DNA of 64,000 nucleotides from an archaeon (GCA_043825775.1 JBDRRK010000013.1:6463-70462), one strand, 5' to 3'. Positions 2,050-64,000 are shown, numbered from the stretch's first letter. The notes: generated by a model not told the origin, from the sequence alone. Made by a program: numbers and translations.

Positions 2050-2904
2050 CTATTGAAGTGCATCAAATGATTTCATTGCAACTTCTATTTGTTTTTCATC
2101 TGGTTCTCTTGTTGTTATTTTTTGTAATAATAGTCCAGGAGATATTAAAGCTAGTAGAAATTTACTTTTTCTATACTTCCCAGAAAGTTTAATTAATTCG
2201 TATGCTACTCCAGCTATAATTGGTAATAATGCTATTCTAATACCAAATTTTATCCAGAAGGAGTATTCTAATGGGATAAATATGTAAGCAATTATACTTA
2301 AAAATATTACAAAGATAATAAAACTTGAACCACATCTTGGATGTAATGTACTGTATGTTTTTATTCTATTCATATTATCTTTTGTTATCCTTTGTTCATC
2401 TTCATAGGCATTAACAATCTTGTGTTCTGCTCCATGGTATTGGAATACACGTTTTACATCTGGCATCAAGGATATAACATAGATATATCCAGTTAGAATT
2501 ATAAGTTTGATTAAACCTTCTGTTGCATTATACAAATATTTGTTTTCAAAATTTATTAAATCTGCTAAAAAGAAGGGTAGAAACTTGAATAATAATAATG
2601 CTAAACCAATTGAAAAAATAAAAGTAAATAATATACTCCAAAAACCAAGAACTTGTTCTCCATCTTCTGAAACTGATATATTTGCAGAGTAATTCAAAGC
2701 TTTCATTCCTTGAATTAAAGTTTCAAAAAGAATTACTATTCCTCTAATGAAAGGTAAACCTAATAGTTTGTTTTTAGTTAAAGATTTATAACTCTCAACT
2801 TTTGTAATTATTTTATCCTTGGGATCTCTTACTGCAACAGCAATTTTATTTTTTCCCTTGAACATTACCCCTTCTATTACTGCCTGTCCGCCTATATTCT
2901 GCAT
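2050..2904 (-). CDS. DUF1385 (YqhQ-like) membrane protein, putative metalloprotease
   Basis: IGGQAVIEGVM, YHGAEHK, HPRCGSSF, TTREPD motifs. Confidence 0.85.
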   Translation of the reverse strand: MQNIGGQAVIEGVMFKGKNKIAVAVRDPKDKIITKVESYKSLTKNKLLGLPFIRGIVILFETLIQGMKALNYSANISVSEDGEQVLGFWSILFTFIFSIGLALLLFKFLPFFLADLINFENKYLYNATEGLIKLIILTGYIYVISLMPDVKRVFQYHGAEHKIVNAYEDEQRITKDNMNRIKTYSTLHPRCGSSFIIFVIFLSIIAYIFIPLEYSFWIKFGIRIALLPIIAGVAYELIKLSGKYRKSKFLLALISPGLLLQKITTREPDEKQIEVAMKSFDALQ

Positions 2905-5776
2905 TTTTGTTTAATAATCTCCATACTAAAAGTACTATTAATAGTGCTAAAATTAATGAAAGTGATACAATACTTATTAATTTTGTCTTTTCTTTGAAGA
3001 AACCAGGTTCTCTTTCTTCTTCTTCAAGAATTTCAACAATCATATCCTCTTCTGGAGGGTATTCACTTGGTGTTTCCTCAATTACTGATTCTTCTGTTAT
3101 TGCTGTTATTGCGAAGTATGAGAATCCAGGTGTTGTTGCTGCATAGACATATGAATCATTTTCAACTCTTATGTATCTTGTTGACAATTCTTCCCATGAT
3201 GTTGTATATCTTTGTAATACTATATCTTCTTTGGTTACATCATTATCTCTAATCCAAGTTTTTAAAACTTTAAATTCTAGTTCTCCATTTGAAATATCTT
3301 CATTATCAAAGTTTGTTGTTGTTATTTCTAGATATTGATATAATATTCCTTTAGGACTTAATACTATTGTTTCTTCTAAGGCTTCAACTTTTACTTTTAT
3401 ATTTGCTAACTCCTTATTTACATCTATATCTACATGAGTAATAGGTATTAATAGATTATTTATTGAAAAGGAAATAGGGTTTTCTGCTGATGCTGATTCA
3501 ATGATTTGGGTTACTGATGTACTTGTTCCACTTCCTCCGCCACCTCCACCACTAGAACCTCCACCAGAACCTCCAGGACTTCCACTATTTGGTGATACTG
3601 GTGTTGGTGTTGAAATGTTAAAAGTTCTTTGTTCAGACATGTTTTGATTGTTTGCTGAGTCTGTACAATTAGTATACCAAGTATAATTTTCAATAGGATA
3701 AGATTTTGTAAAAGAGCCTGTAGCTGAAGCATCAGTTGCATTTATTGTAGAATCAATAATTAATGAACAATTATCTATACTATTTGTATCTGTAACTCCA
3801 TATTGGAATGTTATCTCTTGTAGACTTGAAGAATAAATTTGTTTGTCTGCTGGAGATGTTAATGTTATTGCTGGTTTTATTGTATCATAGATTCTAGTGT
3901 AGTTTGCAGAGGCGTATACTGATTGTGTTTTATTATTAGTAGATAAACAGTTCCAAGAATAAGTTCCATCAGTTGGGATTATATAGGAGAAAGAGGATGA
4001 ATTAGTTGCCCCTTGTTTATCTGTTGTTTCATTGTAAACTAAAGATGTTGAATTCCAAATACTAAATGTTACATTTGCTAACTCTGCTGTTTCATTAGCT
4101 ATGCTTGAACATGCGAAGGAAGTTGGATTTGTATTTGTTATTGAGTTGTCTGCTGGTGAAGTTAATGTTGTTTGCATTGCTTGGGCTATAATTAAGGTAA
4201 AGTTTTCAGTTGCATAAGCTTCATTGTTGTTGTAATCTTTTGCTAAACAATTCCAGTAATATGTTCCAGTTGTTAAACCAGTTACATCAAAATCACTAGA
4301 GTTTGTTGTTCCTGTTGTTGTGTTTGTTTGATTATTGAATAAATATGTTGAGTTCCAAATTTTTAGTGTTATGTTTGAAACATAAAAATCAGATACATTA
4401 CATGAAAAGGTTTGATTTGCACTTCCATCATTTGTGTTATTTGCTGGGGATGTAAGTGTTACATTTGGTTGATCTATATCTAATGCGGCTATTGCTTTGT
4501 AAATATCAATTCTTGGGAAAATCCTTCCAGAATTTGCAGAGTCATCTATTGCTAATCCTGTTTTATTAAGAGTACTTTCAATTTGTTGGGTTGTTTTTGT
4601 TTGTCCAGAAAGGTTTAGGTATTGGTTCATTAAAATTATTGCTCCTGCTGCATGTGGAGCTGCCATTGAAGTTCCATACTTTCCAGTTGTTCCTCCTAGA
4701 TAATTTAATGAGGTTACTGTATTTCCTGCTGTACCACCTGGTGCAAGTAAATCAGTAAGAGAATTTCTTTCTACATATGATGGAATTGTATCTGCTCCTT
4801 TATCTACTGAACCAATTGCTGTTGCATTTTCAATACAAGCTGGAGTTCCAATTGTAGTTGTTGTTCCAGAATTTCCAGTTGCTATTGTGATTACAACATT
4901 TTGATCTATTGCATCTTGTATTGCAGCTGCCATTGTTGGATAGGCTGAATCACAGTAACTTGAAAATGCTCCTCCTCCTAAAGAAATGGTTATTACAGAG
5001 ATATTATATGTTGCTGCATTATCTGAGCACCATTGTATTCCTTCTGTTATATCACTAATTAATGCTGAACCAGAAGAATTTGTTACTTTCATCGCGATGA
5101 AATTAACTTCAGGAGCCATACCTAATGCTGATGTTCCATTTGCACCAACAATTCCAGCTACATGTGTTCCATGACCTTGGTCATCTTCTGCATTGTTAAG
5201 TTCATTAGTGTTATCAGAGCAACATCCTCCTGAACCTAAATCAGTTACATCACAATAACAGTATTCTGCAACTATTCTTCCTTGTAAAGATTCATGAGTT
5301 GAATTTATTCCAGTATCAATAACACATACTGTTTGGCCTAGTCCAGTAAGATTTATGTTGTATAATTGTAAAGCATGTACTGTATCTGTTTCAATTTGAG
5401 GCAAGGTTGTTGCTAGTTGAATGTTTAATACTTCATCTTCTCTAATAGAAGTTATATCTTCTTGTAAAATATCTTTAAGTTCTTGTTCATTAATTGTTGC
5501 AGAGTAAAAATCTTCTGATATTTCATCTAATTCAATGTTTAAATCTTCAGGAGAATCTGTTTCAATTATTACTTGTACATCTTTTTCTTCAATTTGATCT
5601 ACCACTTCAATATCAATAAAAATTTGTCCTTCATCAATATTTTCTGGGATCTCTTCAGCTATTACAAAAATTGTAATTTTATCTGATTTACTATAAAATA
5701 GTTTATCTTGAAAAACACCCAAAGTGGAGACTAATAAAAAAATAACTATAATTAATATTATAATCTTCCCCCTCAT
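2846..5776 (-). CDS. Membrane-anchored subtilisin (S8) protease with Ig-like repeats and PGF-pre-PGF domain
   Basis: Signal peptide; triad VIDTG, HGTHVAG, GTSMAAP; three LTSPA(N/D) repeats; Gly/Ser linker; TTPGFSYFAI; C-terminal TM. Confidence 0.9.
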   Translation of the reverse strand: MRGKIIILIIVIFLLVSTLGVFQDKLFYSKSDKITIFVIAEEIPENIDEGQIFIDIEVVDQIEEKDVQVIIETDSPEDLNIELDEISEDFYSATINEQELKDILQEDITSIREDEVLNIQLATTLPQIETDTVHALQLYNINLTGLGQTVCVIDTGINSTHESLQGRIVAEYCYCDVTDLGSGGCCSDNTNELNNAEDDQGHGTHVAGIVGANGTSALGMAPEVNFIAMKVTNSSGSALISDITEGIQWCSDNAATYNISVITISLGGGAFSSYCDSAYPTMAAAIQDAIDQNVVITIATGNSGTTTTIGTPACIENATAIGSVDKGADTIPSYVERNSLTDLLAPGGTAGNTVTSLNYLGGTTGKYGTSMAAPHAAGAIILMNQYLNLSGQTKTTQQIESTLNKTGLAIDDSANSGRIFPRIDIYKAIAALDIDQPNVTLTSPANNTNDGSANQTFSCNVSDFYVSNITLKIWNSTYLFNNQTNTTTGTTNSSDFDVTGLTTGTYYWNCLAKDYNNNEAYATENFTLIIAQAMQTTLTSPADNSITNTNPTSFACSSIANETAELANVTFSIWNSTSLVYNETTDKQGATNSSSFSYIIPTDGTYSWNCLSTNNKTQSVYASANYTRIYDTIKPAITLTSPADKQIYSSSLQEITFQYGVTDTNSIDNCSLIIDSTINATDASATGSFTKSYPIENYTWYTNCTDSANNQNMSEQRTFNISTPTPVSPNSGSPGGSGGGSSGGGGGGSGTSTSVTQIIESASAENPISFSINNLLIPITHVDIDVNKELANIKVKVEALEETIVLSPKGILYQYLEITTTNFDNEDISNGELEFKVLKTWIRDNDVTKEDIVLQRYTTSWEELSTRYIRVENDSYVYAATTPGFSYFAITAITEESVIEETPSEYPPEEDMIVEILEEEEREPGFFKEKTKLISIVSLSLILALLIVLLVWRLLNKNAEYRRTGSNRRGNVQGKK

Positions 5777-34597: not shown

Positions 34598-35671
34598 ATG
34601 AACGTGTTCGGATCTCTAATTGAAGACGCATTAAAAAATGTAGATACTCAGAAAGAGGAAATTGTTGTTGGTCAAGCTAACATAAAAGTTATTGGTTGTG
34701 GTGGTGGAGGAACTAATGCAACAAATTGGCTTTTCAAAAAAGGTATACAGGGTGCTCAAGTTATTGCACTTAACACTGATAAACAGCATCTAGATTTAGT
34801 TGAAGCTGATAGAAAAATTCTAATTGGAAGAGATTTAACACGTGGATTGGGTTGCGGTGGATTTCCTGAAAAAGGTAGAGAAGCTGCTAGAGAGCAAGTT
34901 GGTGAATTAAAAGAGATGCTTAGAAATACTGATATGGTTTTTGTTACTGCTGGAATGGGTGGTGGAACTGGTACCGGTTCAGCTCCTGTTGTAGCTCAAA
35001 TGGCTAAGGAAACTGGTGCTATTGTTATTGGTGCAGTTACAATGCCTTTTGATATTGAAAGAGCTAGAATTGAAAAGGCTGAATATGGTTTACAACAATT
35101 AAGAGATGTTTGTGATACTGTTATTGTTATTGATAACAACAGACTTGTTCAAATTGCAGGTAATTTGCCAATTCAACAAGCATTTGCAGTAGCTAATGAA
35201 TTGATTTCTACTATGATTAAAGGTATTGTAGAGATTATTGCAGTTCCTTCTCTAGTTAACCTAGACTATGCAGATGTAAAGGCAATTATGGCCAATGGTG
35301 ATGTCTCTGTTATTGGTATTGGTGAATCAGATTCTCAGAATAGGGTTGATGAAGCTGTAAAGAGAGCATTGAGTAATCCTCTTTTAGAAGTTAGTTATGA
35401 GGGTGCTACAGGCGCTTTAATTCATGTTTGTGGAGGAGATGATTTAACTCTTGATGAAGTTAATCAAGTTGGTGATATGATCACAGAAGCTCTTGATGCA
35501 GATGCAAATGTTATCTGGGGGGCTAGGATTGTTGGAAATATGAAAGGCAAGTTGAGAGTTATGACAATCATTACTGGAGTTAGCTCACCTTATATCCTTG
35601 GGAAGGGTAAAAAAAATATTGCTAAAGAACAAGGAAAGATGTCAAGAGATTTTGGCATTGATTTTCTTTAA
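34598..35671 (+). CDS. ftsZ: Cell division protein FtsZ (copy A)
   Basis: GGGTGTG tubulin signature, NLDYAD T7 loop; GGAGG RBS. Confidence 0.97.
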
Positions 35672-55025: not shown

Positions 55026-56099
55026 ATGGATTTTTTAGTACAAAACGCAATGCAAAATGCAAACAATTTTCAGACACAAGAAACTAACATCGGACAAGCA
55101 AATATTAAGGTATTTGGCTGTGGTGGTGGTGGAACTAATGTTACTAATTGGTTATATAAAAAAGGTATCCAGGGTGCAGAGATAGTTGCATTGAATACTG
55201 ATAAACAACACTTAGATCTTGTTGAAGCAGATAAAAAACTTCTAATTGGTAAAAATTTGACTAGGGGACTTGGTTGTGGAGGATTTCCTCAAAAAGGAGC
55301 TGAAGCAGCTAAAGAACAAATGTCAGAAATAAGACATATGCTTGGAAATGCAGATATGGTATTTATTACTGCTGGAATGGGTGGAGGAACTGGAACAGGA
55401 TGTGCACCAGTTGTCGCGAAAGTTGCAAAAGAATTAGGGGCAATCGTTATTGGTAGTGTTACAATGCCTTTTTCAATCGAAAGAGCGAGAATTGATAAAG
55501 CAGAGTTTGGATTGCAACAACTGAGAGAGGAATGTGACACAGTCATAGTTATTGACAACAATAGATTAGTACAAATTGCTGGTAACTTACCAGTACAACA
55601 GGCATTTGCAGTTGCAAACGAATTGATTTCCACAATGATTAAAGGAATTGTAGAGATAATTGCAGTGCCATCGTTGGTTAACTTAGACTACGCAGATGTA
55701 AAAGCTATTATGGCTAATGGTGATGTATCTGTGATAGGAATTGGCGAAAGTGATTCAGAACAAAGAGTCGAGGAAGCAGTGAGAAGAGCATTGTCAAATC
55801 CATTGTTAGAAGTGTCATACGAAGGAGCCACAGGCGCTCTGATACATGTAGCAGGTGGAAATGATTTGACATTGGATGAAGTGAGTAAGGCTGGAAATAT
55901 GATAACTGAAGCATTAGATGCTGATGCGAATGTTATCTGGGGAGCAAGAGTTAACGAAAACATGAAGGGAAAGATTAGAGTAATGACAATAATAACAGGA
56001 GTTAATTCCCCATATATTTTGGGAAAAGGTGCTCATAAACAGAAAGCTGCTCAAGCAGTAGCTGTTTCAAGAGAACTAGGAATCGACTTAGTTAGATAG
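55026..56099 (+). CDS. ftsZ: Cell division protein FtsZ (copy B)
   Basis: GGGTGTG, NLDYAD; AGGGGG RBS. Confidence 0.97.
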
Positions 56100-56139
56100 T
56101 TATAGGGTTTACCCCCAAATTAACCCCCACGAAGACTGT

Positions 56140-56176
56140 GCTAGTATCCTCACGGGTACTAGCCTTTTTCTTTTTT
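56140..56176 (+). terminator. Hairpin plus U-tract intrinsic terminator after ftsZ copy B
   Basis: GCTAGTATCC-TCAC-GGGTACTAGC (10 bp with one G-U pair, valid on the + strand) followed by TTTTTCTTTTTT. Confidence 0.7.
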
Positions 56177-56215
56177 CTAAAAACCTTTATAAATAAATTA
56201 TTATTTTTCTATAAT

Positions 56216-57319
56216 ATGCTAGAAGAAGGAGTTATGTATTATGTTAATGATAGGAAGAGTAGACTTTTTGGTAGAATGGTCTATAGTTCATATTTAAAAG
56301 AAGAAAAGTGGAGAGCAGATTATGATTATATTGAACCTGATTTTGATTTTGATAAGCTTGAAATAAGAAGAGAACTACAACCAATGATAAGAAAAGCTGG
56401 ATGGGAAGGTATTGAAAAAATTCTTAAAGAAAGTTTATGTGAAGGGTTTTTTCACTTTACTGATTTAATGCATTTACCAAGAATTTTCAGAGAAGGATAT
56501 ATTGCTTCAAGAGCTCTTGCTATTAAAAATGGGCTTGTAAAAGTTGACTGTATTTCTGAAATTGGTAAAAACAACCATGTGGTAGAAGAGGAGAAGAAGG
56601 TTCAAGATTATGCAAGATTTACTATTCAAGCAGCTAATCCTATACAGTACAACTACCTTGGATTTAGAGAAGGAAATTGTGTTCCTCAACCATGTGTTAT
56701 TTGTGTTGATCCAAGTATAGCCTTTGCTTGGAGAGTTATGTTTTCTAAAACAAATGCAAATACAGGTGGACAAAAATATGGTAAGTCTTCTGATTTCTTA
56801 AGTGATATTCCAATAGCAAATTTGCAACATTGTTCTTGCAATAGTATTGAAGATAGATGTGCTGAATTATTATACCCTCATGGTGCCCCCATAAATTTTA
56901 TTAAAGGAATATATTTCAGAACAAAAGGTGAAATGAAACATGCAATTAACCTAACACCTGGATGGTTTTGGCATGATTTGATGGTAGAGGATTCAAGAAT
57001 GTTTGGAGAAAGGAAAGATGTTTGTTTTTTAGAAGATGTAAGTTTGGGTTCTAAAGGAAAAGAAGACCAAAGTGAATTTTCTTTGGGTAGTAATATAAGA
57101 TTTAGATTTTCCCTAAATAATCCAGATAATTCTTATGTTTGTGCTAAAGTTCTTCACGATGGAGAAAAAGCAGGGCTTTTAACTAGAAATTCCCAATCCA
57201 CACAAACCTTTGATCTTAATAAAATTGTTAGAAAAAAGGGAGATTATAAGATAAAACTTTTCTTGATTAAAGGAAAGTATAAAAGAAGGATTTATACAAC
57301 TAACTTTGTAGTTGAATAA
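56216..57319 (+). CDS. DarT-like (DUF4433) DNA ADP-ribosyltransferase domain protein
   Basis: FHFTD..HLPRIF..G.IASR, YARF, FSKTNA, AELL.P..IKGIY; promoter at 56181. Confidence 0.75.
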   Translation: MLEEGVMYYVNDRKSRLFGRMVYSSYLKEEKWRADYDYIEPDFDFDKLEIRRELQPMIRKAGWEGIEKILKESLCEGFFHFTDLMHLPRIFREGYIASRALAIKNGLVKVDCISEIGKNNHVVEEEKKVQDYARFTIQAANPIQYNYLGFREGNCVPQPCVICVDPSIAFAWRVMFSKTNANTGGQKYGKSSDFLSDIPIANLQHCSCNSIEDRCAELLYPHGAPINFIKGIYFRTKGEMKHAINLTPGWFWHDLMVEDSRMFGERKDVCFLEDVSLGSKGKEDQSEFSLGSNIRFRFSLNNPDNSYVCAKVLHDGEKAGLLTRNSQSTQTFDLNKIVRKKGDYKIKLFLIKGKYKRRIYTTNFVVE

Positions 57320-57693
57320 TTTTGTTTAAACATTCATTTATTAGAATTAGTTTCTTTAAATGAAAAGCCAGTCCCATTTCTAACAAAGTATTTGCCCCAA
57401 CATATCCTGAAATTCCTTTTTTATCATGATTTAAGATAAGAACAGCATCGCTCTATTCAACTTTATCAAAATGTTTTCTCATTGCTTTTTCTTTTTCATG
57501 CCAAATCCAGGAGTCATTGGTTGCCTCTGCTTTTCTTAGTTGATAATATTCCCTTACATCTAATAAGTTTCCTGAATTATCTTCTATTTGGGTAGGAGGC
57601 ATCTTAACTTCATGGCCTAAAAATTCTAATTTCTCCTTTGCCTGTAACATCTCATCAAAGAATGCAATACTCCCACATATAACATATTTTCAT
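57320..57693 (-). pseudogene. Nucleoside 2-deoxyribosyltransferase-like pseudogene
   Basis: Extra A after the ATG (ATG AAAA TAT GTT ATA TGT GGG AGT); TAG at a probable Trp codon (57453-55); frame continues SDAVLILN...YVGANTLLEMGLAF. Confidence 0.85.
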
Positions 57694-58100
57694 TTTACTA
57701 AGTTAAGATCTCCATTAATTACTAGGGGATTAATTGCTGTTAGTTCATCTTTAAAAATATTATCTGGAATTTCATTATAAAGATATATCTTCTTTCCTAA
57801 CTCAAATGCTTTAAATATTTCTAGAAAAGTAGCACCCCCAATATAATTTTGTTGGCCATGTTTTTCCATATTTAATATTAGAACTGCATCATTTTCTCGA
57901 ACTTTTGGTTCTTGAAGTTTCATCATGTTTTGTTTCCATTCAATATGTTCACTTTTTCCTACTTTTTTCATATCTTCTTCCTTAAATGGTTCATCAAAGG
58001 AGTTTGGAACTGTAATTATATGTCCATTTTTCTCTAATTCCTCCTTAATAGGTAGAACCCTATCATATATGTGTTTGCTACAACAAATAAATATTTTCAT
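57690..58100 (-). CDS. Nucleoside 2-deoxyribosyltransferase-like protein
   Basis: KIFICCS, DAVLILN, YIGGATFLE, GKKIYL. Confidence 0.75.
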   Translation of the reverse strand: MKIFICCSKHIYDRVLPIKEELEKNGHIITVPNSFDEPFKEEDMKKVGKSEHIEWKQNMMKLQEPKVRENDAVLILNMEKHGQQNYIGGATFLEIFKAFELGKKIYLYNEIPDNIFKDELTAINPLVINGDLNLVK

Positions 58101-60021: not shown

Positions 60022-60735
60022 ATGGTTGATCCAAATATACTAAGTAAAGTTCCAGGGCTAGTTGAAGAATACAACAAAGCAGATGATACATATAGCAGAA
60101 TGGTCCCAATTATCTTAAAGAAAGGATTGGAAAATGTTAATTTGAATATGTTCCCTGAACATATGCAATCAGGTCTGTTGAATGCTGTTGCTGTTGAGTT
60201 AGTTAAGAAAGGAAGAACTCAGGAAGCTATTGAAGCTTTTCTTAGAGCAAAAAACAGGCCTAAAATTATTGAAATTGGTGATAATTTCAGAAATATGAAT
60301 ATGTTTTCTCAAGCAATTGATTGTTATGAACATGCTAAAGCAAATGAAAAGTTGTTGGCTGTTGGTGAGGTTTGTTTGAGAGAGGGACAGATGATTGATG
60401 CAATCCGAGCTTTTCAATTGGTTGAGGATAAGGCCAAACTATTGTTGGTTGGGGATGAGTGTGTTAAAAGGGAGAAATTTGAGCCTGCAATTGAAGTTTT
60501 CAGATTCTTGGAGAATAGAGATAAGTTAAATATGGTTGGAGATATGTGTATTAAACATGATCAACTAATCCAAGCTGCAAAAGCATATGAACTTTCTGGA
60601 AATATGGACAAAATGAATACAGTTGGGGATATATTTATGCAAAAAGAGCAATTAAATAATGCTTATGAAGTGTATAAGATTGCCAACAATCAAGTAATGA
60701 TTGAATTCTTAAGAGAAAATTTTAAGATGGCTTAA
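60022..60735 (+). CDS. TPR-like alpha-solenoid repeat protein
   Basis: About 26-aa repeats with a VGD/E..A..AY pattern; GAGGTGG RBS. Confidence 0.75.
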   Translation: MVDPNILSKVPGLVEEYNKADDTYSRMVPIILKKGLENVNLNMFPEHMQSGLLNAVAVELVKKGRTQEAIEAFLRAKNRPKIIEIGDNFRNMNMFSQAIDCYEHAKANEKLLAVGEVCLREGQMIDAIRAFQLVEDKAKLLLVGDECVKREKFEPAIEVFRFLENRDKLNMVGDMCIKHDQLIQAAKAYELSGNMDKMNTVGDIFMQKEQLNNAYEVYKIANNQVMIEFLRENFKMA

Positions 60736-61691
60736 CCAGCTATATAAACTTTTTCTGTTTCTTTTTTTCCATTAACCCATCTAATATTTGTTCTGTTTGA
60801 ATCCATCCATCTAAAAGAATGACTATTAATAATTATTTCATCAGAATTTAAATTATATGTTGCATTTACTCTACATTTTAATTTATCATCTGGATCAATT
60901 CCAGTTAAATCTCCACAATATTGGAAACCAGTTCTACCTTGCATCCCTACTAAGTCAGATCCCCAAGGTGTTACAGTTGTTCTATAAGTTATTGCACCAT
61001 TAGTATTATCTTCTAAATCTTGATTTAATACTCCAATAACAACTTCATAAGCCCAGTTTACTCTTTCTGAAACTTCCTGTCTTTGTTTTTGATTTACTGC
61101 ATCTTTTAATTTTAATCTTTGAGGGGTCATTACATCACCATCATTAAGGGCTTTATCTAAACTCCAATTTGAAAAATAAAATTTATTATCTTCAATTGCA
61201 TTCCATTCCCTTTTATGATCAATAACTACACTTATTAAAGTTCCATCACCAAATCTTTTTTCATGTGTACAATTAAATCTTGTAAATCTGCCTTGAGATA
61301 AATCAAAATCATTTCTGTTTTTGATTACATTCATTATTCCTTGGTAACCTTCTTTTACTTTTTCTTCTGAATATTTTCTATCTACAATAGTTTTTGGATC
61401 ACTGCCCGCTTCAAAATAAAGTAATCTTGAAAGATAGATTAAATCTTTAGCTGTTAAATTGTATCCATACACTCTGTTTATTGTTTCTGCTGCTTCTTCT
61501 AATGGCATTTCTAATATTTCCTCAGTAGAAACTTTTCTTGGAACACTTTCTGGAGTCCATTTTGCTTTTTGAATTTCTTCTGGAAGACTTTCTTCTACCA
61601 TTCCATGAGGATGTAATTCAGGAATTCCTAACTTACCAGTATTTGCAACTGACAATAATGCTACAAGTCCGAGTGATGTAAATCTTTTCAT
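60732..61691 (-). CDS. SleB/CwlJ-like cell wall hydrolase (Hydrolase_2)
   Basis: LSRLLYFEAG (catalytic Glu), NVIKNR, D.TNGAITY, I.SHSF; N-terminal signal-like segment; ATG 61691 preferred. Confidence 0.8.
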   Translation of the reverse strand: MKRFTSLGLVALLSVANTGKLGIPELHPHGMVEESLPEEIQKAKWTPESVPRKVSTEEILEMPLEEAAETINRVYGYNLTAKDLIYLSRLLYFEAGSDPKTIVDRKYSEEKVKEGYQGIMNVIKNRNDFDLSQGRFTRFNCTHEKRFGDGTLISVVIDHKREWNAIEDNKFYFSNWSLDKALNDGDVMTPQRLKLKDAVNQKQRQEVSERVNWAYEVVIGVLNQDLEDNTNGAITYRTTVTPWGSDLVGMQGRTGFQYCGDLTGIDPDDKLKCRVNATYNLNSDEIIINSHSFRWMDSNRTNIRWVNGKKETEKVYIAG

Positions 61692-61692
61692 T

Positions 61693-62259
61693 TTAGTTAC
61701 ACTTATGATATCCTTCTGGAGCACTTACACTAATATGTACATGCCCTTCATGATACCCATCTCCTTGAAAGAATGATTGTGGTAAGTTACATTTTGATAC
61801 TGCACTTCTTGGACCAAATGCTTTTCTTGCTCTACATTCATATGCAACTGTTGCTAATTCACAAGCATTTCCTTCATTTTTAAAATCTACTGCTAAAGAA
61901 CCTTCATAATGGTCTTTACATCCATAGTGTGCTGAATTCTTTGTATGTGCACAGGATTTATCATAATTATCTTGACAGTGTTCGAATCCTGCAGAATCAC
62001 TTATACTTAGGATTGTTGCTTCTGTTGAAAGTTTGGATTGCATACAGTTTAGTAAATCTGTTAATTTTGGAGAGGCATCTTTTCTTTGTTTTTCAATTCC
62101 AGGTGCATAGTTCCAATCCTTTAAAGAAGGAGTTGATTCTCTTGGAGTACATTGACAAGATATTTCATTTGCATTTAAGTAAGAACCAAGACTAATAAAT
62201 GAGCCTAGAGCTACTAAAGTTATAATTCCTTTCTTTGCCCTTTGTAATATGTCTGTCAT
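61693..62259 (-). CDS. Secreted M15/LAS-family Zn peptidase-like protein
   Basis: SAH...LAVD...HVH Zn ligands; N-terminal hydrophobic signal; many Cys. Confidence 0.65.
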   Translation of the reverse strand: MTDILQRAKKGIITLVALGSFISLGSYLNANEISCQCTPRESTPSLKDWNYAPGIEKQRKDASPKLTDLLNCMQSKLSTEATILSISDSAGFEHCQDNYDKSCAHTKNSAHYGCKDHYEGSLAVDFKNEGNACELATVAYECRARKAFGPRSAVSKCNLPQSFFQGDGYHEGHVHISVSAPEGYHKCN

Positions 62260-63296
62260 TTTAATTTCACTCCTGAAATAAAACCTTCATTTTCCATTGA
62301 TTTAAGTATTGCAGCTGTACCTACTTGTTTGTCTACAACATCACAACTAAATTTATGGTCCCCATAAAACTTCCCAGTCTCATACCACTGTGATCCACTC
62401 CATACATATGGAGAATTTACTTGTTTTCCATCACAAGATTTATTTCTGTACCCATTTCCATTGAATCTTTCTAATGCCTCAAGTGTTCCATGTTTTTGAT
62501 TTGGTTTGTAATGTTTGTCTATTGCATCTGTAGCTGCATCAACCCAATTATCAAAATAAATTCCTTTTGGAACTTGTTTTGTTGGTGCTCCTAATTTTTC
62601 TCCATTATGTAAATAGGTTGAAAAATCTCCTGCTGATTCTCTCATATGTATTGCTCCAACAACATACCAAGGTACTCCAGTTCTAGATTCAACTTTCTTG
62701 TATGCTTTTTTGTTTTTATTGATTAATCTAGCCTCATAAGTTGCCCTACTTTTCCAATCAGAATTTTTAAATTCAATATTTTCATACATTTCATTGTAAT
62801 CATTTGGTTCTGTTGGACTTGGTTGTATGGTTTCAGTATCTCTAAAAAGATCAACACCTTGCTCAACTCTACTTGCTAGAGAATCAGTTGCTCCATTTGC
62901 TAACAAACCTACTAATCCTGCACCCATGGCTGCTGATTTTAGGTGTCTTCTTATAGGCTGTTTCCATTTATTTCTTCTGGATTTAGTTTTTCTTCTGGTA
63001 TCATAAGGTAAAAGATTTGCTCTTCTTTTTGTAATTTTTTTGTGTGCGAGGTTTACAATACCTTTTCCAAAGTTAACTAACCCTTCTTCATAAACTGGCC
63101 TTAAGACATAGTTTCCAAATGTTGCTAAACCACCCCAAAAAAGACCCTGTTCGACAACCTCTGGCATTTGTACTAGTTGTTCTAATCCATCTATAGCATA
63201 GTCTAAACCCATAGCTGTAGCTACTGTAGCTAGGGCATAAGGGGCAACAGAATTTACCCCTTTTTGAATGTCAGTAAAAGCACTATTTTTTGCCAT
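62256..63296 (-). CDS. Membrane-anchored lysozyme-like (COG5526-type) protein
   Basis: TGVPWYVVGAIHMRES, LHNG, LERFNG.GY, SPYVWSGS, GKFYGD, Q.G.AAILK. Confidence 0.82.
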   Translation of the reverse strand: MAKNSAFTDIQKGVNSVAPYALATVATAMGLDYAIDGLEQLVQMPEVVEQGLFWGGLATFGNYVLRPVYEEGLVNFGKGIVNLAHKKITKRRANLLPYDTRRKTKSRRNKWKQPIRRHLKSAAMGAGLVGLLANGATDSLASRVEQGVDLFRDTETIQPSPTEPNDYNEMYENIEFKNSDWKSRATYEARLINKNKKAYKKVESRTGVPWYVVGAIHMRESAGDFSTYLHNGEKLGAPTKQVPKGIYFDNWVDAATDAIDKHYKPNQKHGTLEALERFNGNGYRNKSCDGKQVNSPYVWSGSQWYETGKFYGDHKFSCDVVDKQVGTAAILKSMENEGFISGVKLK

Positions 63297-63324: not shown

Positions 63325-63332
63325 TTTATAAA
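63325..63332 (-). promoter_or_regulatory. TATA box of the hydrolase operon
   Basis: TTTATAAA preceded on the - strand by GAAAGA, 29 nt upstream of ATG 63296. Confidence 0.6.
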
Positions 63333-63362
63333 TCTTTCGTTTTTGTTATTACTTTAAAGTGA

Positions 63363-63740
63363 TTAAAAAGAGCCTAGAGCTAGAATTATTATTCCTATTA
63401 TTATTGTAAATATACTAAGCCATCTTTTCCAAGTTACTTGATCATGGAAATAGAATTTAGAGATTAATGCTACAAAGAAATAATTAGAGCTTATTACAGG
63501 ATATGCAAAGGAAAGGTCTAATTTTGTTAAAATTACTATCCATAATAATGTACTTAAAGCATATAGAAAACCACCAATCCAAATATGCTTAGATAGAATA
63601 AACTTTGTTGCCAAAGAAAATAAAGTTTCTTCTTTAAAATGTAAAATTCCTGCTTTGTTTACTCCCATTTTAAGAAATATTTGCGCAACTATACCTAACA
63701 AAACAACTGCAAGTAATAGTAGTAAATATATCCATATCAT
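63363..63740 (-). CDS. SMR/EamA family (ArnE/ArnF-like) membrane protein
   Basis: AQIFLK.G, LDLSFAYP, four TM helices. Confidence 0.82.
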   Translation of the reverse strand: MIWIYLLLLLAVVLLGIVAQIFLKMGVNKAGILHFKEETLFSLATKFILSKHIWIGGFLYALSTLLWIVILTKLDLSFAYPVISSNYFFVALISKFYFHDQVTWKRWLSIFTIIIGIIILALGSF

Positions 63741-64000
63741 GTGTTTGACAGCATTGTTACTCCTGCTGCTATTACTATCAAGCCTATTATTTTTGTAGTT
63801 GTCATGACTTCATTAAAAAATATCCAAGATAAAATTGAAACTATTACATACCCAAAGCTAAGAATTGGATAAGCATAACTTAATTCCGATTTTGATAGTG
63901 CAATTAACCAAGTGAATGCTGAAGAAGCCATTAGAATAACTCCAATCCATATAAATGGATTTAATATTACTATTGATAGAGTTGCTAATAAACTGCTTAA
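63737..64000 (-). CDS. Second SMR/EamA (ArnE/ArnF-like) protein, 5'-partial
   Basis: Frame is open to base 64000; ELSYAYPILS, IGL...G. Confidence 0.8.
   Translation of the reverse strand, partial: LSSLLATLSIVILNPFIWIGVILMASSAFTWLIALSKSELSYAYPILSFGYVIVSILSWIFFNEVMTTTKIIGLIVIAAGVTMLSNT

Follow-up and report, generated by a model that had tools for sequence, protein, structure and literature searches.

Why should an archaeon of a presumably murein-free lineage carry, side by side, three genes that resemble enzymes for opening the bacterial cell wall? The question is raised by a locus in a 64,000-nucleotide stretch of DNA (hereafter the window), whose genes p1, p2 and p3 had been read from the sequence as a lysozyme-like protein, an M15/LAS zinc-peptidase-like protein and a SleB-like protein. 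Previous reports describe large GH23 lytic-transglycosylase proteins in Woese- and Pacearchaeota, and infer that murein-free archaea degrade bacterial walls and are possibly episymbionts or predators of bacteria (Castelle 2021, PMC8204110; Vigneron 2022, PMC9723730). Archaeal peptidoglycan hydrolases (PGHs) kill bacteria (PMC12352652). The general idea that DPANN archaea attack or attach to bacteria is thus in print (PMC8204110, PMC9723730, PMC12352652), and the p1-p3 operon plausibly fits it. That DPANN archaea live or prey on bacteria has so far been argued from few recognisable murein-hydrolase genes.

Layout of the operon and its host

The predicted arrangement of three co-oriented genes behind a single TATA box (63325) agrees with the open reading frames (ORFs) and with a BRE/TATA-like element, and an operon is supported in which p1, p2 and p3 are translationally coupled minus-strand genes downstream of one promoter. 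The features of the locus are:

63363-64000, minus strand: pair of small EamA/SMR-like membrane protein genes, the upstream flank, conserved in loci L017 and L024
63325-63337, minus strand: BRE/TATA-like promoter element AAAGATTTATAAA, read directly from the sequence, ~30 nt upstream of the p1 ATG
62256-63296, minus strand: p1, ORF of 346 aa
62817-63296, minus strand: p1 residues 1-160, conserved carrier module, from comparison with relatives carrying a different head
62259-62744, minus strand: p1 residues 185-346, COG5526-like "lysozyme family" head, from homology and the invariant Glu220 and Glu276
61693-62259, minus strand: p2, ORF of 188 aa
62164-62259, minus strand: p2 residues 1-32, conserved N-terminal anchor (..AKKG/IITLVALGSF..), from comparison with relatives; its start overlaps the p1 stop
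61696-62127, minus strand: p2 residues 45-188, cysteine-rich LAS-fold (MepA/M15-like) zinc-peptidase head, from predicted structure and alignment
60732-61691, minus strand: p3, ORF of 319 aa from the ATG, with a SleB/CwlJ-like Hydrolase_2 domain, from relatives, profile and predicted structure
60022-60735, plus strand: convergent gene for a 237-aa TPR protein, the downstream flank, 84-93% identical in L003, L017, L021 and L024

With the promoter element so close to the p1 start, the leader would be very short. Both predicted junctions were read in the sequence: p1 and p2 share a 4-nt ATGA overlap at 62256-62259 (...AAATGACAG, with GGAG ~10 nt upstream), and a 1-nt gap at 61692 separates p2 from p3 (TAA-A-ATG). 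The alternative GTG start of p3 gives 60732-61724; the ATG is the choice of the gene caller and the start that aligns with relatives. At its other end, p3 is overlapped by 4 nt by the 3' end of the TPR gene. The motifs named in the original prediction were all present, namely AIHMRES, LERFNG and SPYVWSG in p1, H111, D125 and H173-V-H175 in p2, and LYFEAG in p3.

The host is archaeal, since the 64-kb window encodes GatD/GatE, FtsZ, ThyX and split RpoB and RpoA. The DPANN-like host proposed earlier is upheld, and the assignment to a tiny groundwater DPANN archaeon of the Woese/Nanoarchaeota type is supported. Nothing of the p1-p3 region was found in metatranscriptomes from the same study.

Direct scans against Pfam, PHROGs and NCBIfam gave no meaningful match for p1, p2 or p3, nor did single-protein sequence searches of the PDB, and the Pfam scan detected no wall-binding domain in any of the three. 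Matches to adenylate kinase, MATH and holin in family scans were discarded as noise. In a word-indexed homologue search p2 and p3 seemed to be orphans because of the limited sensitivity of that search; exhaustive searching and locus scans then gave relatives.

The three proteins: anchors and heads

Each protein had been assigned an N-terminal signal or transmembrane segment. This is clear for p2 (residues 12-28) and p3 (7-23) and only partly true for p1, which has no simple signal peptide: its carrier module combines a strongly basic loop (86-120) with three Gly/Ala-rich segments of weak hydrophobicity (18-36, 50-66 and 121-137), which make the topology of p1 uncertain. The module is common to relatives with a different head, and it had no match in a species-representative genome collection.

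Over residues ~190-346, the C-terminal half of p1 aligns with more than 85 homologues at E-values from 1e-11 to 1e-28; JGI labels about 25 of these "lysozyme family protein", a name that we take to denote COG5526. Glu220 (HMRES) and Glu276 (ERFNG) are invariant in an alignment of 24 such domains. The head has no Pfam, NCBIfam or PHROG model, and its family profile matched no solved structure in the PDB. Among its relatives the partner domains are PG_binding_1 (three proteins), PG_binding_3 (one), CHAP (two) and, on a Rhizobium plasmid, Peptidase_M15_3; the phage collection contained a single relative, a Bradyrhizobium phage protein in which a p1-type head is fused to PG_binding_1. These peptidoglycan-related partners, all absent from p1 itself, support the lysozyme-like call made earlier, and homology supports placing the p1 head in the Pfam-less, COG5526-like group of "lysozyme family proteins". 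To our knowledge, the fold and activity of the COG5526 family are predictions only. The family was reportedly described by Pei and Grishin in 2005 (Protein Sci 14:2574), with members joined to PG_binding_1. The p1 head is homologous to proteins so named, but here a 160-aa archaeal membrane module takes the place of a peptidoglycan-binding domain.

The anchor of p2 could be either of the plain signal-anchor type or a class III (pilin-like) signal, and both fit its sequence equally. In the FlaFind-type class III pattern a hydrophobic helix comes after [KR]-G/A; of five proteins at the p2 position in related loci, four fit it (KG/IITL, RG/LITL, RG/LATL) and the fifth has NG/LMTL, and a plain signal anchor would suit them just as well. 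The 64-kb window showed neither pilus genes nor further class III-signal proteins. The protein has ten cysteines, which fits an extracytoplasmic location. Its structure model is of moderate overall confidence (pLDDT 67), with core blocks at 78-93. Searched against the PDB, the model matched only LAS-fold proteins at ranks 1-10 (MepA with probability 0.95-0.98, the hedgehog N-domain, ChiX, and the T5 and RB49 peptidases), and phage wall hydrolases and M15 peptidases headed the matches in a viral library (0.98-1.00); for p2 and p3 alike these high probabilities come with modest E-values (1e-2 to 5e-2). His111, Asp125, His170 and His175 are invariant in all seven aligned sequences (p2 and six relatives). 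The H-x-H of p2 is H173-V-H175; position 173 is Cys in L003, and the bacterial relatives have a plain H-x-H. No M15, VanY or M74 family model matched p2 or any of the six relatives at E<=0.1, and p2 is therefore best regarded as representing a LAS family without a name.

The predicted p2 structure accordingly supports a zinc peptidase of the LAS fold, MepA/M15-like and with its metal ligands conserved, and of the earlier M15/LAS call the fold and the H/D/H ligands stand while membership in Pfam M15 does not. The p2 head shares this fold and the His...Asp...His-x-His arrangement with MepA (M74; 1u10, 1tzp) and with phage and bacterial M15 enzymes (T5, RB49, ChiX, LysECD7), the latter being L-Ala-D-Glu or D,D-peptidases. 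It differs from the M15/M74 enzymes in being cysteine-rich, in lacking membership at the sequence level, and in an atypically long His-to-Asp spacing (13 residues against ~6) over a loop of low model confidence. As close relatives it has only the C-terminal domains of T4SS-pilin fusion proteins encoded on bacterial contigs; none occurred in the species-representative genome collection or in the phage collection.

p3 consists of a signal peptide (~1-24), a Hydrolase_2 domain with Glu94 (LYFEAG) and a C-terminal beta-sheet extension (~271-317). Exhaustive phmmer searching gave 34 relatives (E<=1e-3) and none in the phage collection. PF07486 (Hydrolase_2) matched 29 of the 35 family members (best E 5e-10), two of which also carry M23, whereas p3 alone did not match PF07486 even at E<=1. 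The family profile reached SleB chains in the PDB (4f55, E 1.4e-3; 4fet, E 9e-3). The AF2 model of p3 (pLDDT 82, pTM 0.78), searched against 350,542 PDB chains, had SleB as its top two matches (4fet_A and 4f55, probability 0.99 and 0.98, TM 0.59 and 0.53 on the target). The relatives and the best matches of the model bear out the SleB-like call, and p3 as a divergent SleB/CwlJ (Hydrolase_2) relative is supported; structural searching of the predicted models thus led p2 to LAS peptidases and p3 to SleB, in line with the family calls. Glu94, in the E-A-x-G motif, is invariant in 35/35 sequences and is presumably the catalytic Glu of SleB, judging from the motif alignment and the SleB structure papers. 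Common to p3 and the spore-cortex lytic enzymes SleB and CwlJ (4fet, 4f55) are the fold of the catalytic domain, the motifs E-A-x-G, NR and DPT..A..Y, and the invariant Glu; p3 lacks the N-terminal peptidoglycan-binding domain of SleB, and has large insertions and the C-terminal extension. Its subfamily sits on archaeal contigs, and p3 itself lies below Pfam detection.

A conserved slot with exchanged heads

The locus was compared with slot loci on related DPANN contigs (L003, L001, L015, L017/L019, L021 and L024). This check of synteny, suggested with the original prediction, showed that the same slot recurs with conserved flanks and changed cargo. The flanks are 60-93% identical among relatives and the carriers 34-50%, while the heads are unalignable. 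At position 1 one membrane module is kept and the head is COG5526-like or a GH73 glucosaminidase; between the window and L017 the N-terminal module is 50% identical under these two different heads. A detectable relation between the COG5526-like and GH73 heads was considered and rejected (hhalign probability 0.9%). At position 2 one N-terminal anchor is kept below a LAS, M23 or DUF2272 (papain-like) head. Across these comparisons at positions 1 and 2 the flanks are 81-93% identical. DUF2272 has been grouped among the NlpC/P60-CHAP amidases, to which Tse1 belongs (PMC10318531). A gene for a SleB-like protein is optional, and in all five two-gene loci a predicted glycan cutter is paired with a predicted peptide cutter. 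The gene ftsZ lies 4.6 kb from the operon in the window, adjoins the locus in L015 and is close in several genomes. Both the conservation of the slot and the exchange of heads had been missed in the original prediction.

This organisation resembles that of the polymorphic effector and toxin loci of bacteria in its constant N-terminal carriers and non-homologous C-terminal heads among close relatives, and the alternative DUF2272 head, grouped with Tse1-type amidases, recalls wall-targeting T6SS effectors such as Tse1. In contrast to such loci, the archaeal slot has two or three carriers instead of one, and neither a secretion apparatus nor an immunity gene adjoins it. Downstream of the heads there is no small conserved gene in the window, L003, L015 or L017, and none is to be expected if the producer lacks murein. 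The cassette-like organisation adds to the published idea, and we did not find it described in the literature. The p1 carrier was also sought on the long SleB-like proteins P0114, P0117, P0119 and P0125 and rejected there (hhalign probability ~1%); in these proteins the N-terminal membrane region is of another kind and, in L024, is also encoded by a free-standing gene of 179 aa.

Role of the operon and competing explanations

Could the locus be an artefact or foreign DNA, for instance a bacterial or phage fragment joined in by misassembly, or the lysis cassette of a mobile element? The heads do ultimately trace back to bacterial families, a phage encodes one p1-type head, and heads of the p2 type form part of bacterial T4SS pilin fusions. 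However, the GC and GC3 of p1-p3 fall inside the range of the housekeeping genes, the region is covered by a single 23.9-kb contig of even depth, and an independent groundwater study of 2019 contains identical fragments, one of them spanning the p1/p2 junction. The p1-p3 layout was also seen again in independent assemblies; together these results rule out the misassembled contig that had been named as a possible refutation. Moreover, the promoter is archaeal, housekeeping genes flank the same slot in seven loci (one on an 841-kb contig), and the four p1-type heads found in slot loci and L004 group together in a single clade. An artefact or foreign DNA is in our judgement scarcely credible.

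We consider it probable that the operon provides a DPANN archaeon with murein hydrolases tethered to the cell surface, and their most likely role, as predicted from sequence, would be to digest bacterial murein where cells touch. The carriers would hold the heads outside the cytoplasmic membrane, where the glycan cutters p1 and p3 and the peptide cutter p2 could jointly make a local opening, where the cells meet, in the murein of a bacterial host, prey or neighbour. Head exchange may tune the kit to wall chemotypes, or an arms race may drive it. The main argument for murein as the substrate is that a presumably murein-free lineage keeps the pair of glycan and peptide cutters through non-homologous replacement. 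Going further, the slot might be a polymorphic "wall-opener" locus near ftsZ, with two constant carriers, interchangeable glycan- and peptide-cutting heads and an optional SleB-like protein, which would determine the host or prey range of bacteria-dwelling episymbionts by matching heads to the wall chemotype of the partner and would include at least two enzyme families unrecognised by domain libraries; this extension is tentative, and we would sooner bet against it than for it.

The same enzymes might instead be released, acting on free wall debris or lysed neighbours for amino sugars and peptides, or killing competitors in the manner of bacteriocins. DPANN archaea lack many biosynthetic pathways, and their peptidoglycan degradation has been read as a "vampiristic" or recycling metabolism (PMC9723730); archaeal PGHs are secreted killers in haloarchaea (PMC12352652), and the Gly/Ala-rich third segment of p1 resembles releasable SAR anchors, which might allow release. 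Nevertheless, p1-p3 all have N-terminal anchors or signals and lack a wall-binding domain, unlike the secreted modular PGHs, and no genes for muropeptide transport or catabolism adjoin the operon. Conservation of the carriers while the heads change suggests that the tether matters, and we regard release as unlikely. A substrate other than bacterial murein, be it the cell's own envelope, for example during division, or pseudomurein or another wall polymer made by an archaeal host, seems less probable still. The proximity of ftsZ in several genomes would suit it, as would the archaeal identity of known DPANN hosts (PMC8204110), but the linkage to ftsZ simply belongs to a conserved backbone. Very few archaeal PGHs were found in pseudomurein producers in a published survey (PMC12352652). 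All five head families belong to murein-specific hydrolase classes, and the pairing of glycan and peptide cutter is kept. The pseudomurein-cutting enzymes that we know of are of types other than these. There is, finally, a very small chance that the heads have lost catalysis or taken on another function, such as that of adhesins binding glycan or peptide without cutting; divergence beyond the reach of Pfam and the unusual His-Asp ligand spacing of p2 in its low-confidence loop speak for this, the invariance within each family of the predicted catalytic residues (E220 and E276 in p1, H111/D125/H175 in p2, E94 in p3) against it.

If surface-tethered digestion of bacterial murein is the correct reading, these archaea may hold more wall-cutting enzymes than domain surveys show, p1-p3 all being invisible to Pfam. 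Selection would be keeping a pair of glycan and peptide cutters while the enzymes themselves are replaced, which is hard to explain unless the substrate is murein. The system is compact, with three small heads carrying predicted catalytic residues; the slot could serve as a survey marker across genomes, to be compared with co-occurring bacteria, and the heads are candidate new lysin families. The published DPANN SLT/GH23 proteins share with p1-p3 the kind of organism and the inference of wall degradation, but are single proteins of up to 3,000 aa that standard models detect, whereas p1-p3 are three small proteins of other classes, in one operon, with conserved anchors in a slot of exchanged heads. 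Modular archaeal PGHs such as Woldo and Danwoldo of Halogranum salarium (PLoS Biol 2025, PMC12352652) are likewise homologues of bacterial wall hydrolases (M23, glucosaminidase); their antibacterial activity was demonstrated, and their domain shuffling and patchy distribution were read as an arms race. That survey required a catalytic domain together with a recognised cell-wall-binding domain, and p1-p3, having no such binding domain, fall outside its definition. They differ further from these modular PGHs in being predicted to be membrane-tethered, in heads that Pfam does not detect, and in being chromosomal at a fixed slot rather than plasmid-enriched.

The operon and its three proteins

The three genes form a single transcription unit on the minus strand, and encode hydrolase-type proteins with conserved predicted catalytic residues, in which N-terminal membrane parts (carriers) are conserved and C-terminal catalytic-type domains (heads) are exchanged at a fixed chromosomal slot. 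In transcription order the features are:

63325-63337, promoter element AAAGATTTATAAA in a BRE/TATA arrangement, about 30 nt before the p1 ATG
62256-63296, minus strand, p1, ORF of 346 aa
61693-62259, minus strand, p2, ORF of 188 aa
60732-61691, minus strand, p3, 319 aa counted from the ATG

The shared orientation, the ATGA overlap joining the p1 stop to the p2 start (GGAG about 10 nt upstream), the 1-base gap between the p2 stop and the p3 start, and the single BRE/TATA element therefore confirm the co-oriented three-gene operon of the original prediction. Read from the sequence, the position of this element implies a nearly leaderless transcript. The ATG of p3 is that of the public gene call and aligns with relatives; an alternative open GTG start lies 33 nt upstream. 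The upstream EamA-like gene is separated from p1 by 66 bases, and the 3' end of p3 overlaps the convergent TPR gene by 4 nt.

All three proteins, p1, p2 and p3, went unrecognized by Pfam, PHROGs and NCBIfam, and PDB searches with the single sequences gave no match. Numerous relatives of p1 (more than 85) were found only for its C-terminal half, approximately residues 185-346, and about 25 of them are named “lysozyme family protein”. The head family itself has no model in Pfam, NCBIfam or PHROG. Fusion partners among its members are PG_binding_1 (one such fusion is a Bradyrhizobium phage protein), PG_binding_3 and CHAP, and Glu220 (HMRES) and Glu276 (ERFNG) are invariant. We take the family name to correspond to COG5526, which Pei and Grishin (2005) are said to have predicted to be lysozyme-like. 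The lysozyme-like character originally proposed for p1 is supported by this homology and by the two glutamates, but a PDB search with the head profile matched no solved structure; we infer a lysozyme-like fold for the head. A 513-aa protein on the Rhizobium leguminosarum conjugative plasmid pR132505 (L014:1458-2999) joins a p1-type “lysozyme family” domain to Peptidase_M15_3, and so unites two activities that the archaeal operon keeps as separate genes.

A syntenic archaeal contig (L003) encodes a protein 51% identical to p2. Seven aligned p2-type sequences share C103, H105, S109, H111, Y112, G113, A123-V-D125-F, E129, H170, H175 and C187 without exception. The structural model of p2 is of moderate overall confidence (pLDDT 67) and good in the core. 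All ten of its best PDB matches have the LAS fold, the zinc-peptidase group that includes MepA and M15 (MepA, hedgehog N-domain, ChiX, LysECD7, and the T5 and RB49 L-Ala-D-Glu peptidases), and in a viral library phage wall hydrolases and M15 peptidases ranked on top. These matches place p2 as an unnamed LAS-type zinc peptidase, nearest in fold to MepA. Thus, of the “M15/LAS-like” description the LAS part stands at the level of the model, but p2 matched no M15 model and membership of Pfam M15 was rejected. In a metagenome scan the p2-type domain also formed the C-terminal part of proteins with an N-terminal T4SS pilin (PF18895), on contigs that are bacterial because RuvA and FemAB lie nearby, and that are probably from Patescibacteria. 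These fusion genes adjoin a second pilin gene (L005-L012; e.g. L005:812-1654, L011:1474-2550), and the product would be a pilin-borne wall peptidase.

An exhaustive phmmer search gave 34 relatives of p3, and Pfam Hydrolase_2 (SleB/CwlJ) is matched by 29 of the 35 family sequences, two of which additionally carry an M23 domain. The family consensus (R..YFE.G ... VI.NR..FD ... DPT.GALFYKN ... IG.H.FY) follows the SleB signature and includes an invariant Glu94, and the family profile matches SleB chains in the PDB. In the PDB, the AlphaFold model of p3 (pLDDT 82) came closest to the two structures of the SleB catalytic domain (probability 0.98-0.99); p3 differs from SleB in extra insertions and a C-terminal beta-sheet extension. 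The predicted SleB-like nature of p3 is supported by family and model alike. Every member with an informative, readable context lies on an archaeal contig. One of the side findings is a 489-aa protein that joins an M23 peptidase to a SleB-like domain of the p3 subfamily (L027:4146-5615, GCA_016213985.1), on a contig that is archaeal, with aEF-1alpha and S10 nearby. A GNAT acetyltransferase gene directly adjoins a SleB-like gene in two unrelated contigs (L017:8484-8960, L023:40-579), which may be chance or a link to wall-sugar acetylation.

A chromosomal slot with exchanged cargo

Inspection of contigs that encode relatives revealed that the operon occupies a slot between a small EamA-like gene pair and a convergent 237-aa TPR gene, a few kb from YjbQ, FtsZ and GatD. 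In this synteny search, of the kind envisaged with the original prediction, the slot recurred in relatives with conserved flanks (identity to the window 84-93% for TPR, 60-81% for EamA and 80-91% for FtsZ) and with cargo differing between loci.

Cargo of the slot and of related loci
Window: COG5526-like, LAS, SleB-like
L003: COG5526-like, LAS
L017/L019: GH73 glucosaminidase, M23, SleB-like (43% to p3), GNAT
L015 (GCA_054040335.1): GH73, M23; DNA ligase/FtsZ context, no TPR flank
L001 (Nanoarchaeota MAG): COG5526-like, DUF2272; neighbours differ
L024 (841-kb contig): 179-aa membrane protein, then SleB-like protein with a different N-terminal membrane region
L021: SleB-like alone

Proteins at position 1, the place of p1, have a 160-aa N-module in common (window versus L017, 50% identity; versus L003, 38%), and their COG5526-like and GH73 heads are unalignable (hhalign probability 0.9%). 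At position 2, the place of p2, the anchor ..[KR]G-L/I-x-T-L-V.. is shared and the head is LAS, M23 or DUF2272, the last being grouped with NlpC/P60-CHAP amidases, beside the T6SS effector Tse1 (PMC10318531). From the head families at the two positions it follows that every two-gene version pairs a predicted glycan-strand cutter with a predicted stem-peptide cutter, the enzymes being non-homologous. In a tree with other, mostly unnamed metagenomic homologues, two of them bearing bacterial names, the four p1-type heads from L001, L003, L004 and the window group together as a single clade (support 97/92), which is consistent with one acquisition.

The 179-aa protein of L024 (L024:4483-5022) is paralogous to the N-terminal part of the 476-aa SleB-like protein encoded next to it (L024:5001-6431), and the pair looks like a headless carrier beside a carrier with a head. 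L003, otherwise archaeal and syntenic with the window, has an ECF-like sigma-factor gene (Sigma70_r2/r4, L003:3299-3841) that is absent from the window.

The original prediction placed a signal or membrane segment on each protein. This holds for p2, where a basic stretch precedes a 17-residue hydrophobic helix, and for p3, whose N-terminus is signal-peptide-like (its L017 relative has a lipobox-like LVAGC), but not in classical form for p1, whose three Gly/Ala-rich segments are weakly hydrophobic, the third being preceded by a very basic loop. Provided this loop is cytoplasmic, the p1 head would be outside. The ten cysteines of p2 fit an extracytoplasmic location. A class III signal motif is a candidate reading of the position-2 anchor, fitting four of five proteins; the 64-kb window contains no pilus genes, and an ordinary signal anchor would account for the anchor as well. 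A C-terminal Cys-Asn (..HKCN, ..YSCN, ..ISCN, ..GCN) was observed in p2 (window 61696-61701), L003:1158-1742, L001:4143-4787 and L005:812-1654; it is common to the position-2 LAS and DUF2272 proteins and the bacterial pilin-LAS fusions, is absent from the M23-headed proteins, and might serve as a signal for sorting or processing, or form a terminal disulfide.

Proposed role and relation to earlier work

We consider it probable that the heads are displayed outside the archaeal membrane, where they would jointly cut the glycan and peptide of bacterial murein at archaeon-bacterium contact, and that head exchange would adapt the kit to different walls or reflect an arms race. Use of the same proteins to scavenge wall debris, or to kill in the manner of bacteriocins, is a rather unlikely alternative, and a non-murein substrate or self-remodelling is less likely still. 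That the heads are non-catalytic adhesins appears very improbable given their conserved predicted catalytic residues.

The least credible reading, to which we give almost no weight, is an artefact or a mobile lysis cassette. The window (G+C 30%) includes GatD, GatE, two FtsZ, ThyX, and split RpoB'/B'' and RpoA'/A'', and is therefore archaeal, as was claimed; close p1 relatives are assigned to Nanoarchaeota in the databases. The three genes (GC 0.30-0.35, GC3 0.12-0.17) lie inside the housekeeping-gene range. Groundwater metagenomes contain the operon region, one 23.9-kb contig spans it at even depth, and fragments of identical sequence, one crossing the p1/p2 junction, occur in the data of an independent 2019 study. 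Consequently, chimeric assembly or contamination by bacterial or phage DNA, a concern attached to the original prediction, is very unlikely.

Murein lytic-transglycosylase proteins have been reported in Woese- and Pacearchaeota, with bacterial hosts suggested (PMC8204110), as have GH23 genes and pore-forming toxins in “vampiristic” Woesearchaeota (PMC9723730), and modular archaeal peptidoglycan hydrolases, notably in Nanoarchaeota and including one hydrolase that kills bacteria (PMC12352652). The latter survey demanded a wall-binding domain and recognizable catalytic domains, and p1, p2 and p3 therefore fall outside its definition. The interpretation first offered, a wall-breaching kit directed at bacteria, is largely right but less novel than supposed, since the general claim that DPANN archaea carry bacterial-wall hydrolases is already published in these three reports. 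In the literature covered, we found no account of such an operon, its carrier modules, the slot or SleB-like enzymes in DPANN archaea, an absence that is weak evidence. Our results add to the published idea insofar that the slot is cassette-like.

Other genes in the window

The two FtsZ paralogues lie at 34598-35671 and 55026-56099, and the single visible FtsZ of L003 is 91% identical to one and 79% to the other. Between FtsZ and YjbQ, a 393-aa protein (56138-57319, plus strand) carries a DarT domain (ssDNA thymidine ADP-ribosyltransferase, PF14487, E 2.9e-17). Its gene looks like an insertion, because L003 has just ~330 bp at this place. Together with a 136-aa neighbour that has no Pfam match (57690-58100, minus strand), it may form an archaeal DarTG-like toxin-antitoxin or defence module. 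Finally, a subtilase (Peptidase_S8) domain is present in a 976-aa protein (2846-5776, minus strand), which may be a further large hydrolase, secreted or on the surface.
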